Source: Oikopleura dioica
Taxonomy: Eukaryota > Animalia > Chordata
Assembly: GCA_907165135.1 (NCBI GenBank)
Contig: OU015569.1
Span: forward strand, 9,079,889 to 9,143,888
Reading direction: 5' to 3'
DNA length: 64,000 bases
The position numbers were made by a program, and so were the translations under genes. Position 1 is the stretch's first letter. Each line of letters starts with the position of its first letter. Below are positions 26,486 through 30,968 of this stretch, piece after piece. The notes under the pieces are model-generated. The model was not told the origin of the DNA. It made no database searches and worked only from the letters and a program-made list of their open reading frames with translations.

Positions 26486-26940
26486 CGGCCAATTTCAATA
26501 AGGAATCCAAATTCCAAATCCTAACCCCCCATGTTTTTGTGCTCGTTGGAAAGAGCGTAAAAAGTTACGTCAGAAAAAAATAGTTTTAGAGGCTGAGTCA
26601 TCATTGATGACGTCATGGCGGCTGGTTGAAGTTCCAAAAGTCCCAAAAGTTTGATACGCTCTCATTTTTTTTTCCACAAATGGAAAATTTGAGTTCAATA
26701 CTGGAAAATGATCGCCTTGACCTACTCTAGGTGAAGAGCTATATATGAAATATCCAACTCTAGAAAAAAAATTTTTTTTTTCGATTTTTTCAAAATTTCA
26801 ACCTAAAAATGTTGAATTGCAATAGAATACTTCCAAATAATGAAATAAAGCATTTAAATTTGTTTCCTGGTCACAAAAATGATCATTCAAGGTCATCCGG
26901 GGTCATTTGAGGTCACAAATCAAAATAAAATTTTGCGCAT
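26486..26940 (+). repeat. Left TIR of the transposon, with a ~135-bp extra segment (26750-26885) absent from the right TIR
   Basis: Matches the reverse complement of 30640-30968. It contains 'ATGACGTCAT' and a subterminal triple direct repeat 'AGGTCAtccgGGGTCAtttgAGGTCA' (26888-26913). Confidence 0.8.
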
Positions 26941-26988
26941 TTTTGACTTTTTAACAAAAAATGCGCGCAAAAATCTAGGTAAGAGTAT

Positions 26989-29900
26989 TTATTCAAGTGG
27001 GTGAAACTCGGCCTGATTGCCGGAGATTTCGTAGGAAACGCATTTTGAACAGAAGTCTGCAGCAGAGAAGAGACAAGAATCGCATAAATCTGGACAGACA
27101 GTATTGCTTATATTATACAAGTAGTAGCTGCCGGATCGCTTTTCTTCGACCTTTGCCTTGATCATACGGATACTTCTTTGTCCAGTAATTATTTTCGATC
27201 CGTCGCTGCCCTTTTTCGAAAGCTTTCCCATATTCATAAAGAGATTGTCATGTACCATCATAATGCGCAAGTCTGTTGGAAGCGGGATATGAGCAAAGCA
27301 ATGAAAGATGCCATTCGGATCGACCATGTTAGCAGTCAGTCGTTCACCGAGAGAAGGAAGATAATCGCCGAGGCCAATAGCAGGAATACATTTCCCATTG
27401 AGCTCGTCGCGCTTCATCATTGTTTTCGCATGCCCTCCAACACCATCGATCTTCGATCAAGTTCAATAAATAGAGGAATGTGTTGATCCCTTACCGTGCT
27501 TTTCCCGTGGCGACTTTGTTTGAAAACTTTGCATACGGGAAGGCCCCATCCATCCTCGTCAGACACATCAGAAAGTACTTTCCACGATCGATAATCCTAC
27601 ATATGATGTAAACAAACTGCGCCGAATTCTTCATTACGCGCAAAATTATAATTTTGCGCAGATTTTTATTCTGCGCAAATTTTTGAATAACAAAACTTAC
27701 GACAGCCTGGTCGCTCATGAGAATCGCACGTTCGTAGCCCTCGAAAACTTCATTGTCCTCGATGTATTTTAAGCATTTCTGGAAGTGAAGCTTTACAATA
27801 TGTCCGCCCTTTTTCGAATAAGCATTGCTGTCGTCTTTCCAATACATCAAGCAGGAATTGAATCTTCTTCTCGTTAGTTTACCATCGAGCATAAAATATC
27901 CCCAAATGGTGAAACAATGGATGACAAGCTCGTCGTTGTTACCGCGAAGCGCGTTCTAAAAAATCATAATTTTGCGCAAAGATGGAGGGCGAATTCACAT
28001 TTTGGGTGACCGTTCCACCAGTTTTCCCGGCACTGTATTCTCCACTGAAATCGCATTCACAGATCAAAGCGGTTGGAGGATGGATTATTCCGCGTCTCAA
28101 TTTTGTGCAAAGATGGCCTGTATGTCGCGTCTCATTATGATGAAAAAGATCGTTCTTGCAACGTTGCGCAGCCTCAATCAGTAGTTCCTGAAATCGAATA
28201 AAATTTTGCGCATTTTTTCATTACAAACTTTTGCGGAAAGTGTTTTGGTTTGCGCAATGTTTTTGAGAATTCTCCTCTCATTGTCTCTTTTCCTTGCAAG
28301 ATCAGCCATCACTTTGACATAAAACTTCGGCAAGACATCGGTTGACGTGTCTTCCATGATGTCTTTGATCTTCTTATATTTTTCTGAAAGCGCAACGTTG
28401 ATTTCGGCTTTTGAGTTGGGACCATGAGAGCAGCTAAATTTTGCGCAAGCATCATCGAACACTCCTAATGAAGGATACAGCGGATCGTCACAGCCTTTAA
28501 CCTCCATGAGGAATACGATGACTTCCTCAATTGAAAGATTGCGTTCCGTGATCTTCAGAAGGAATAAGAGATCGGCAACTTAAAATCAATTATGGAAATT
28601 TTGCTTAAAAATTCAATATCTTTACCTCTAGACAATGTGTTTCGCAAAGAAAAACAGGGTGCGCATAAGCACGAATATTCATCTTTGACTTTTGGTTCAA
28701 CAAAAAGAGGCGGAATGAGCTGTTTGAACTGAAATGCAGAGATTTGAGGCTTTCCGTCTCTGCATCTCTCCTTGTTGAATTCTTCGCAAAGCAAAGAGAA
28801 TTTGTTGTGCGCTAACCTCCGATCGCAGCGAAATTTCTTTTTGACAGGCTTTGAATAATTTTGCGCATTTCCTGGCTCTTCCGCTTCTGCTCCCGGCTCG
28901 TCTTCCGCAAGGTTTTGCCGCTCATCTTCTGGCTCTTCATGCGCAAAATTTTGCGCGTCTTCATCCAACGCCTCATCCTCTGGCTCTCTTTGCGCAAAAT
29001 TTTGCGCGTAATCATCGATCGGCTCATCTTCTGGCTCTCTTTGAGCAAAATTTTGCGCGTCTTCATCGAGCGGCGGTTGATTGTTCTCGTCGTTGTTGTC
29101 ATCGGCTTCTTCTGGACTTGCAACTTCAAACTGTACTACTGAGTAAAGCTTGTGGTTTTCTTCTGACATGAAGACGCGAAAGAAGTTTTCCGATGTTTTC
29201 TTCCGGAGACGCTGCTCATAGAACTCAAATATATCCGTCTCCGGCGCTTCATCGGAGTGGAAATATAAGTACTGAAGGACAGAAGAGATATCTTCATCGG
29301 TGACTCCGCGCATTATTTTTCCGTGTTGGTCTGCTTCTTCATCGGCAATTTCATATATCTGTTTTTCTTTCAGAAGAAGCGCCTCTTCGATGTGATGAAC
29401 TGTCATGGTCTGAGGATGTTTTGGCTCTTTAAAAGGCTCTGATAGATTATTGAAGAATTTAACGAATCGGTTTTGAGTTTTTCGATCAACGCCAAACATG
29501 AATGACTCGGGAAGCACGCACGCTAAAGCTTGAATTTTCATCTTGTGGGGGATGTGGAACCAATGTTGCGCAAAATTTGAGTTGAAGCTGTTCTCCGGGA
29601 CTTCACTTTTTCGTTCGTTGTAAATAGCTAACATTGCTTTGCTCAGTTCTGCTGAAGCTTCGCCGAATTCCTTGTCCTTAATTTTGCGCATTCGTTTCAC
29701 CATGTTCTCAATCGACTCCCGAGTTTCATTTAAGCTTTCTTCGCGAGCATATTCGTCATCAGAAGGATCACTCGGCTTAGAGACACTCGACCCATCTGTT
29801 GATTGTGAGCTGTTTGTTGAGGAACTCTGATGACCAGCGTCATGATCAATTTCGACTCCTAAGTTAATTTTGAATTTCTGAGACTCCGAAAAATCGCTGT

Positions 29901-30376
29901 AACAAAAATTTTGCGCGTTTTAAAAAAATGCGCAAAGTTTTCAGTTTACCTTCCAGTCCGTCGCGAAGGCTCTGTTGGGACTCAGCTTGCTCTTGCGAAT
30001 TTCTTTTGCTTTCTTCTATAATTTCTGTTGCCGGATCACAGAAAAGATAGTGAAGAAGAAGCTCATCGGAATCCTTGAAATTCTTTTCAGCGCAAAACGA
30101 GCAGTCAGGACCAAGTTGAAACGACGCGTGATTCTCTAACACTTGCTTCTTCGAATGGACTTCCTCCAATCTGCCGAAGATATCAGCAACTGCGATGCAT
30201 TGATTGTAGTGTGTTCTGACTCTTAATTTTCGCGCACGAGTGACTTTCTCTTTAGAACTTCCTATGTTATCGTTGCATAAAAAGCATTTATGATAGAGCC
30301 TTGTGGATTTGTTTATGTCCCGATGAAGAGTAAATTTTCTCAGCGACTCATCATTTTCAAAAGGGTATTCAAGCAT
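26989..30376 (-). CDS. Candidate transposase gene, ~900 aa across >=5 exon-like minus-strand ORF segments, with N-terminal CCHC/BED-like zinc fingers, an acidic repeat region and a Tnp2-like core
   Basis: Segments: 29864-30376 ('HKCFLCND..THYNQC', 'CSFCAEKNF..LLHYLFC'), 28555-29703 (382 aa, 'DEDAQNFAQREPEDE' x3), 28178-28507, 27491-27892 (ending 'CLTRMDGAFPYAKFSNKVATGKAR' then gtaagg), and 26989-27420. 'L..DGxFPy' resembles the Transposase_21/Tnp2 'DGFNPF' motif of the CACTA/Mirage/Chapaev superfamily. The match is weak and from memory only. Confidence 0.5.
28938..29063. repeat. Three full copies of the 16-bp perfect palindrome GCGCAAAATTTTGCGC at ~51-bp period inside the coding exon
   Basis: 28943, 28995, 29046 (third copy GAGCAAAATTTTGCGC). 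On the coding (minus) strand each reads GCG CAA AAT TTT GCG = A-Q-N-F-A inside a 17-aa acidic repeat. Confidence 0.85.
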
Positions 30377-30639
30377 TCTATAACATTTTAATAACTATCT
30401 CTGATAATTAAATAACAGAATAAAAATATAAAAAGGAAAAATAAATTTGCGCAAAATTTTCTCTGTCGAATTGTCCTCAATAGTGATCTGACTCTTCGAA
30501 ATGCGAGCAATGTCCGCTCTTATCAGCGCGCATTATTGGTCGGCGGCTTGCGCAAAATGAATCATCAGGTTTCGCCTGGAGCAAAGCATAAATCTACCCC
30601 GAGAAATGCGCAGAATTTCTCAAAAATAGAAAAATGCGC

Positions 30640-30968
30640 AAAATTTTATTTTGATTTGTGACCTCAAATGACCCCGGATGACCTTAAATGATCTAGAGTT
30701 TGATCTTTCATATATAGCTCTTCACCTAGAGTAGGTCAAGGCGATCATTTTCCAGTATTGAACTCAAATTTTCCATTTGTGGAAAAAAAATGAGAGCGTA
30801 TCAAACTTTTGGGACTTTTGGAACTTCAACCAGCCGCCATGACGTCATCAATGATGACTCAGCCTCTAAAACTATTTTTTTCTGACGTAACTTTTTCCGC
30901 TCTTTCCAACGAGCACAAAAACATGGGGGGTTAGGATTTGGAATTTGGATTCCTTATTGAAATTGGCC
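30640..30968 (-). repeat. Right TIR of the transposon
   Basis: Reverse complement of the left TIR. It contains 'gtgacctcaaatgaccccggatgacctt' (the AGGTCA triple repeat) and 'ATGACGTCAT'. Confidence 0.8.

Follow-up and report, generated by a model that had tools for sequence, protein, structure and literature searches.

An autonomous-looking transposon of Oikopleura dioica encodes a DDD transposase with remote homology to Sola2

What kind of unit lies between the two long inverted repeats at 26487-30968 was the question raised by a 64,000-nt stretch of the larvacean Oikopleura dioica (contig OU015569.1, positions 9,079,889 to 9,143,888; hereafter the window). The unit, bounded by terminal inverted repeats (TIRs), measures 4,482 bp and holds a single transposase gene. 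The element is real and probably autonomous, and we favour, with moderate confidence, the reading that it is an autonomous-looking class II cut-and-paste transposon representing a larvacean-restricted, extremely divergent branch of Sola2, a group of the Sola superfamily reportedly described by Bao, Jurka, Kapitonov & Jurka in 2009. We regard it as a new and highly divergent variant that lies within or beside that superfamily, not as something categorically new.

The inverted repeat was resolved by a repeat search of 25500-32000 into three collinear blocks, pairing 26487-26689 with 30766-30968 (203 nt, 96% identity), 26666-26764 with 30692-30790 (99 nt, 98%) and 26881-26966 with 30608-30693 (86 nt, 90%). 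The resulting arms of ~360-480 bp, 90-98% identical, are the longest inverted repeats of the window; their outermost 60 nt are identical, and 96-98% identity extends across ~300 nt. MAFFT alignment showed a block of ~116 bp (~26765-26880) in the left arm only, the arms being otherwise collinear. An earlier note made from the DNA letters had claimed such a repeat, and the claim holds far beyond chance; the arms it paired, 26486-26940 and 30640-30968, stand with revised limits (Table 1), and the extra block accounts for its unequal arm lengths of 455 and 329 bp. The same note took the near-perfect identity as a sign of recent insertion, which cannot be upheld, because TIRs, unlike long terminal repeats (LTRs), are not reset to identity with each insertion and their identity therefore gives no date.

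The termini read GGCCAATTTC..., and the terminal 17-mer GGCCAATTTCAATAAGG is present once at each tip, on opposite strands, and nowhere else in the window, confirming the shared end sequence already noticed. The flanking CAC was likewise found where it had been reported, directly outside both tips, and is the sole perfect direct repeat of at least 3 bp abutting the ends when shifts of up to 3 bp are allowed. CAC/CAC is a candidate 3-bp target-site duplication (TSD) whose length and existence rest on one copy, the random expectation for a 3-bp flank match being ~1/64; the empty target site would be expected to read ...TTTTAGTCACAGAATCG.... DNA- and protein-level comparison detected no further copy in the window, a look-up of exon-sized open reading frames (ORFs) returned no matching record elsewhere, and the 113 loci at which the terminal 17-mer occurred in metagenome contigs were all chance matches without extended similarity.

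That the inverted repeat is a collapsed or chimeric palindrome of a Nanopore-based assembly is hardly credible. Long-read data such as those behind this assembly (PMC8008620) do contain palindromic artefacts, but the arms are held apart by 3.6 kb of coding sequence that is unique and not palindromic, the arms differ by substitutions as well as by the 116-bp indel, the intervening gene has homologues of the same architecture elsewhere, and a distant relative (L001, described below) shows the TIR-gene-TIR layout in an independent assembly.

Every long open segment between the TIRs was located on the minus strand, in agreement with the single coding strand proposed earlier, and joining these segments across six GT-AG introns (91, 47, 41, 43, 104 and 44 nt) yielded an uninterrupted coding sequence of 3,018 nt for 1005 aa. 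The spliced model was identical (100% identity, 100% length) to the annotated O. dioica protein Oidioi.mRNA.OKI2018_I69.XSR.g15965.t1 from the X-specific region of the Okinawa assembly, which independently validates the splicing of all six introns. Their 5' ends are GTAAAC, GTAAAG, GTTTGT, GTGAAT, GTAAGT and GTAAGG, and their sizes agree with the median intron of 49 nt in this species (PMC8008620). The protein is thus longer than the ~900 aa expected by the earlier note, and of its 'gtaagg...ag' introns the GT-AG borders apply to all six and the GTAAGG start to one. The 'L(T)RMDGAFPY' motif it cited is absent from the protein and arises from wrong-frame read-through of intron 5; in the true frame exon 6 reads DYRSWKVLSDVSDEDGWGLPVCK, given also as DYRSWKVLSDVSDEDGWGLPVCKVFKQSRHGKST. 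The promoter lies presumably in or beside the right TIR. An AATAAA hexamer at 26988-26993 (minus strand; GAATAAATAC on the coding strand) overlaps the TAA stop of the gene, so that the 3' untranslated region would extend approximately to where the left TIR begins on its inner side, which would make the layout very compact.

From the N-terminus the 1005-aa protein comprises two fingers, a helical middle, an acidic repeat, a Cys cluster and the C-terminal DDD domain. Both fingers are of the CCHC type, are conserved in relatives and are presumed to bind DNA; the acidic repeat, foreseen as such, consists of 3 x 17-aa units. The fingers had been called 'CCHC/BED-like', of which the BED part falls away. 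A BED-finger transposase was rejected for want of a zf-BED match.

The C-terminal halves of the larvacean family were aligned (alignment A1), and the conserved blocks run, N to C, RRLAHxKF..EEFN; C-x-C-x2-C; KGC...C-x2-F-x-C-x-C; E.DFSGEY; ELVxHxxxxWG(Y/F); SDNAxEYKS; RHGKSxIDxxGGxxK; IRMxK; and NxCPxLC..C....FC. AlphaFold2 supplied with A1 produced a model (pLDDT 75.3, pTM 0.72) with the order b1-b2-b3-a1-b4-b5-a, in which D716 is on b1, D815 just past b4, and D854, with K861 after it, opens the next helix. The family core carries a DDD triad in an RNase H-like fold, as is characteristic of Sola.

Domain databases did not name this core. The exons, the whole protein and 14 relatives taken singly gave no Pfam match at permissive thresholds (E <= 10 for the protein, E <= 5 for the relatives), and neither PHROGs, NCBIfam nor the PDB sequences returned one, the last with the single sequence or the family profile as query. 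No Transposase_21, KDZ, rve, DDE_Tnp_ISAZ013 or zf-BED match was obtained in Pfam. The blank outcome in Pfam is explained by the fact that Sola is one of several superfamilies, with Zator, Kolobok, Academ, Dada and KDZ, in which no Pfam domain can be detected (PMC5751038).

The earlier note had seen a real TIR element with a transposase gene, and in that it was right; its assignment to the CACTA-Mirage-Chapaev superfamily (CMC; Tnp2/Transposase_21) was wrong. Membership in CMC is very improbable and this reading is largely refuted, since the hidden Markov model comparison with Transposase_21 and KDZ that the note had suggested was run and found no match, the DGFNPF-like motif is out of frame, and the termini are, as it had itself remarked, not CACTA/CACTG. 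CAC/CAC would be compatible with the 2-4-bp TSD range of CMC (3 bp for CACTA), at one copy and with a chance of ~1/64; the large multi-exon transposase gene is a likeness, and the Cys cluster may loosely resemble the CxC clusters of the related KDZ/Plavaka elements. An insertion domain and a C/DxxH motif are both missing here, unlike in CMC.

Two other assignments were examined and rejected. Zator/ISAzo13, which among eukaryotic superfamilies is the other one that makes 3-bp TSDs (PMC10045372), shares the apparent TSD length and a compact DDE-type core; hhalign of A1 with the Zator-1_HM core gave E 0.84, and no PF07592 (DDE_Tnp_ISAZ013) match was present. For a Ginger/IS3EU/Polinton-type element there was no rve (PF00665) match, and A1 against the HIV-1 integrase core gave E 0.54. 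The likeness to rve-type integrases is confined to the fold and short motifs. In contrast to retroviral/LTR integrases and IS3/IS481/IS21, the third residue is D and not E, there is no HHCC domain, and the ends are GGCC... in place of TG...CA.

The lead to Sola was a likeness of the DDD pattern and the motif shapes to a large unnamed animal protein family, and it was treated as a lead only. A search with a synthetic consensus retrieved 436 proteins, spider and annelid entries among them, and 20 of these were aligned (alignment A2). By hhalign, A1 matched A2 at 95.7% (E 9.2e-9); the match spans 169 columns and brings the three acidic residues and the lysine into line. The profile-profile runs as a whole gave 93-96% (E 4e-7 to 4.5e-9), and removal of the query protein from A1 still left 94.7%. 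Controls with A2 reversed or column-shuffled reached at most 0.5% (E >= 0.12). A2 in turn matched Sola2-1_HM at 99.8% (E 1e-27), which identifies it as Sola2.

The reference cores were those of Repbase in the supplement of Majorek et al. 2014 (PMC3985635, file 5), namely GDFAENYTFVVQDEIQSYHW...FTDGCAGQYKN...WNFFATSHG for Sola2-1_HM, KDYCQK...KSDNASSYHGN...EPCRGKD for Sola3-1_HM and FDLEK...YSDNCGGQNRN...ERGHTQS for Sola1-1_AP; for Sola2 they were joined by the amoebozoan DFa-2 and PPa-1 (MDFKENI...WSDGAKHFKS...QYHGKSDVD with an upstream C-x2-C; PMC3627910 and its supplement). The block variants of the two amoebozoan proteins are those of the larvacean family, and their upstream C-x2-C (TCPYC / MCPMC) matches the Cys cluster in position, as judged by eye. 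Animal Sola2 against DFa-2 gave 96.3% (E 2e-9), a distance equal to that between A1 and A2.

Comparison by features points the same way in part. Sola elements, which code for DDD transposases, measure 2-9 kb, carry TIRs of 11-1124 bp and generate TSDs of 4 bp (PMC10741241); the 4-bp TSDs of amoebozoan Sola2 are AT-rich (AWWT; PMC3627910). The element at 4.5 kb, with its long TIRs and its one gene, falls within these ranges; shared with Sola2 are further the RNase H-like core with a DDD triad, the blocks DF(S/A)ExY, SD....(F/Y)K(S/N) and HGK(G/S)..D..GG..K, which align, the second-to-third D spacing, a Cys motif ahead of the core, one large transposase of ~900-1000 aa and the lack of a Pfam model. 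Unlike Sola2, the larvacean family has SDNAxEYKS for SDGxxxQFKN, lacks the QDEIQSAHW block, shares less than 20% identity and is known from larvaceans only, and this element adds tandem N-terminal CCHC fingers, an acidic repeat, a dense 11-bp motif array and an apparent TSD of 3 bp (CAC, GC-containing) in place of an AT-rich one of 4 bp. Separately, the animal Sola2 protein P0157 scored 24.8 bits against Pfam DUF7869 (PF25273; gathering threshold 26 bits, E 1.9e-5), and this domain may correspond to part of a Sola2-type core.

Several observations weigh against a placement in Sola2. The A2 members were fetched with a synthetic consensus as query, the hhalign test itself being made on real sequences only. 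The link is profile-to-profile only: P0001 alone against A2 gave E 0.0035, single-sequence comparisons with Sola2 ranged over E 0.0035-0.35 and were not significant, A1 reached no significance either with single Sola2 cores or amoebozoan Sola2 (E 0.01-0.35) or with the single Sola cores taken together (E 0.01-0.4), and A1 against a merged Sola2 profile fell to 87% (E 4e-6). Even when the ends were shifted by as much as 3 bp, this single copy had no perfect 4-bp flanking repeat; a departure from the 4-bp TSD of Sola at one copy weakens the placement but does not exclude it. The third ligand, D854 (or E868), is a predicted one, assigned by alignment and secondary structure, not coordinates. Mobility, TSD and exact ends we infer from one copy.

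Part of this evidence would suit a separate larvacean group of integrase-like DDD transposons, new and of superfamily level ('Sola4-like' or independent) with its own 3-bp TSD, which we consider possible, though clearly less probable than a Sola2 branch. Searches stayed inside the family, with 24 matches among 1.84 billion representatives, no comparison of a single sequence or a single core with Sola1, Sola2 or Sola3 was significant, and Repbase tests for one superfamily by PSI-BLAST convergence (PMC4455052), whereas the Sola2 link here is profile-to-profile. The SDNAS.Y block is nearer to the KSDNASSY of Sola3 than to the SDGxxxQFK of Sola2; Sola3 belongs to the same superfamily of DDD enzymes, yet A1 against its core gave E 0.027 over 20 columns (the SDNAS block only), and its first and third blocks (KDYCQK and PCRGKD) are unlike those of the family. 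Against a separate group stand the A1-A2 distance, equal to that between two curated Sola2 groups, the alignment of all three catalytic blocks and their spacing with Sola2, and the fact that the 3-bp TSD comes from one copy. A divergent Sola2 branch is the reading we retain.

The distribution of the family was examined by phmmer against the 1.84 billion representative proteins, in which the 24 matches had E <= 1e-3 and all named ones belonged to the same O. dioica genome. Three of them, chr2.g6907, chr1.g465 and chr1.g2370, lie on two chromosomes and are 97-98% identical mutually and 32% identical to the query; two fragments, at 52% and 39% identity, come from the Y-specific region, and the remaining relatives are short JGI, ENA and Logan contigs (25-66%). 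When the full protein was the query, a word-indexed search found nothing beyond that protein, the acidic repeat having probably swamped the candidates, and with A1 a fragment was the sole match. In the 4,972-bp contig L001, a relative of 25-27% identity lies inside a 41-nt inverted repeat (98%) with arms ~4.8 kb apart, the left arm being truncated by the contig edge. The family is multi-copy, present on several chromosomes, split into diverged sub-lineages and TIR-bounded in at least one other lineage, and hence transposon-like in behaviour. Among the protein-coding genes annotated in O. dioica, at least six are in fact Sola2-like transposase genes.

These data also bear on whether the locus is a domesticated or immobilised transposase gene that has kept its flanking inverted repeats, which we hold to be improbable. 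Consistent with such a history, the exact protein is single-copy in the protein collection searched, the gene with its six introns and intact 1005-aa ORF passes as an ordinary annotated gene, and no second copy or empty site was found in the 64-kb window, the ORF records or the metagenome 17-mer scan. The retention of both TIRs with identical 60-nt tips is nevertheless difficult to account for unless transposition was selected for or the origin is recent; the paralogues, with three near-identical copies on two chromosomes and Y fragments, behave as transposable elements (TEs) typically do, and the closest relatives, only 50-66% identical, occur in several environmental assemblies.

Some further features of the relatives were recorded. 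One decayed family copy has been annotated on the Y-specific region as two adjacent genes, its N- and C-terminal fragments being YSR.g17043 and YSR.g17044 (P0005 and P0008). The terminal regions of the L001 relative (1-41 / 4841-4881 and 4882-4905) show CTGGCCGGAAGTACTC and then the palindrome ACCGGAAGTCAACTTCCGGT. The animal Sola2 locus L117 has a left palindrome GTGACGGAAGTACACACCATGTGTACTTCCGTCAC (6858-6897) and, ~2.7 kb rightwards, a lone inverted copy GTACTTCCGTCACGG (9598-9618); neither there nor at L118 were clear TIR ends or a TSD seen, only the local palindrome motif. The CGGAAGTAC common to the terminal regions of L001 and L117 may have arisen by chance or may serve both in end recognition.

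The element is also marked by an internal 11-mer. The window holds 12 exact copies of AATTTTGCGCA, against 0.14 expected, and every one is inside the element; the density of TGCGCA is 4.46/kb inside and 0.20/kb outside, a 22-fold difference. Copies with at most one mismatch were found at the inner ends of both TIRs, in the 5' region and in introns 1, 3, 4 and 5, and a degenerate copy in intron 2. The motif also occurs in exons 2-4, in all three codon phases and in both orientations, which marks it as a signal at the nucleic-acid level rather than the side effect of a repeated peptide; each 51-nt unit of the acidic repeat contains the palindrome GCGCAAAATTTTGCGC, formed by it. A 21-nt sequence, AATAAAATTTTGCGCATTTTT, is identical in the left TIR (26924-26944) and intron 3 (28197-28217), a hint that intron sequence and subterminal repeat may share an origin or be homogenised. 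The 11-mer was not found in the distant relatives L001 and L003. It may resemble C/EBP (TTGCGCAA) and E2F (TTTSGCGC) sites, a likeness on which no reading given here is based.

The most natural reading of the array is that it may provide binding sites for the DNA-binding module of the element itself. An extended version, which we consider speculative and rather unlikely, would make the 11-mers distributed sites for the CCHC-finger transposase or an exploited host factor, so that the whole body, introns included, would serve transpososome assembly or autoregulation of transcription or splicing; the introns would have been seeded from the subterminal repeat, and together with the 3-bp TSD the element would represent a new, possibly active larvacean branch, Sola-like and of superfamily level.

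From what is established for DDE/DDD transposases we infer catalysis and DNA binding of the following kind. The CCHC finger module would bind the TIRs or subterminal repeats, and the bound transposon ends would pair in a synapse. D716, D815 and D854 with two metal ions would then cut both ends, the 3'-OH ends would be joined to staggered target phosphates, and gap repair would leave a short TSD, apparently 3 bp (CAC) at this copy.

Table 1. Features of the element and its immediate flanks, in window positions
Feature	Position	Strand	Remark
Left flanking CAC, candidate 3-bp TSD	26484-26486		direct repeat abutting TIR end
Left TIR, at gene 3' end, including extra ~116-bp block	26487-26966	+	repeat search, arm alignment
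Array of AATTTTGCGCA / TGCGCAAAATT (coding strand)	26929-30645		12 exact and ~13 one-mismatch copies
Transposase gene, 7 exons, 1005 aa	26989-30376	-	spliced model equals annotated protein
Exons (including stop)	30376-29950, 29858-28626, 28578-28229, 28187-27999, 27955-27701, 27596-27495, 27450-26989	-	
RNase H-like DDD core, exons 4-7 with introns 4-6	27403-28100	-	alignment and AlphaFold2
E868	27405-27403	-	invariant alternative to D854
K861	27426-27424	-	lysine after D854
D854	27447-27445	-	core acidic residue (predicted)
D815	27712-27710	-	core acidic residue
D716	28052-28050	-	core acidic residue
Conserved Cys cluster upstream of core	28460-28680	-	C-x-C-x2-C, then KGC...C-x2-F-x-C-x-C
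Tandem 51-nt repeats coding acidic DEDAQNFAQREPEDE repeat, 3 x 17 aa	28884-29072	-	
Two CCHC zinc fingers	30038-30286	-	C31-x2-C34-x21-H56-x3-C60 and C92-x2-C95-x13-H109-x3-C113
Right TIR, at gene 5' side	30608-30968	-	repeat search, arm alignment
Right flanking CAC, candidate 3-bp TSD	30969-30971		direct repeat abutting TIR end

Two smaller units were observed elsewhere in the window. The 721-bp unit at 58347-59067, with 77-nt TIRs (79%), termini CAGGGTCTCGAAAA... and a perfect 8-bp direct repeat CGACTGAT on both sides, looks like a non-autonomous element of the miniature inverted-repeat transposable element (MITE) kind from a superfamily with 8-bp TSDs, possibly of the hAT type. The 535-bp hairpin-like unit at 17133-17667 has 166-nt arms, 84% complementary and 203 nt apart, with termini AAACAGGTTTTTTTTAACGTTGCAC... 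and no clear TSD at its ends, and is possibly another MITE.

The genome of O. dioica is among the smallest of animals. The Sola group is, to our knowledge, poorly studied and without a solved structure, and no report tying Oikopleura to Sola was found in the literature searched. In the Okinawa assembly 44% of the repeats are unclassified (PMC8008620), and the present locus gives one such family an identity, that of an intact TIR element with a complete DDD transposase; on the reading favoured here it would extend the Sola group into tunicates by a very divergent branch. Routine annotation by Pfam, BLAST or RepeatMasker libraries would overlook this branch and score an ordinary host gene. For studies that compare these scrambled genomes or their synteny, g15965, chr1.g465, chr1.g2370, chr2.g6907 and YSR.g17043/44 ought to be marked as TE genes. 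The points of interest are the possibly different TSD length, the unusual internal motif array and the possible activity in a compact chordate genome; as an endogenous, possibly active cut-and-paste element, it would be a candidate vector for Oikopleura transgenesis.

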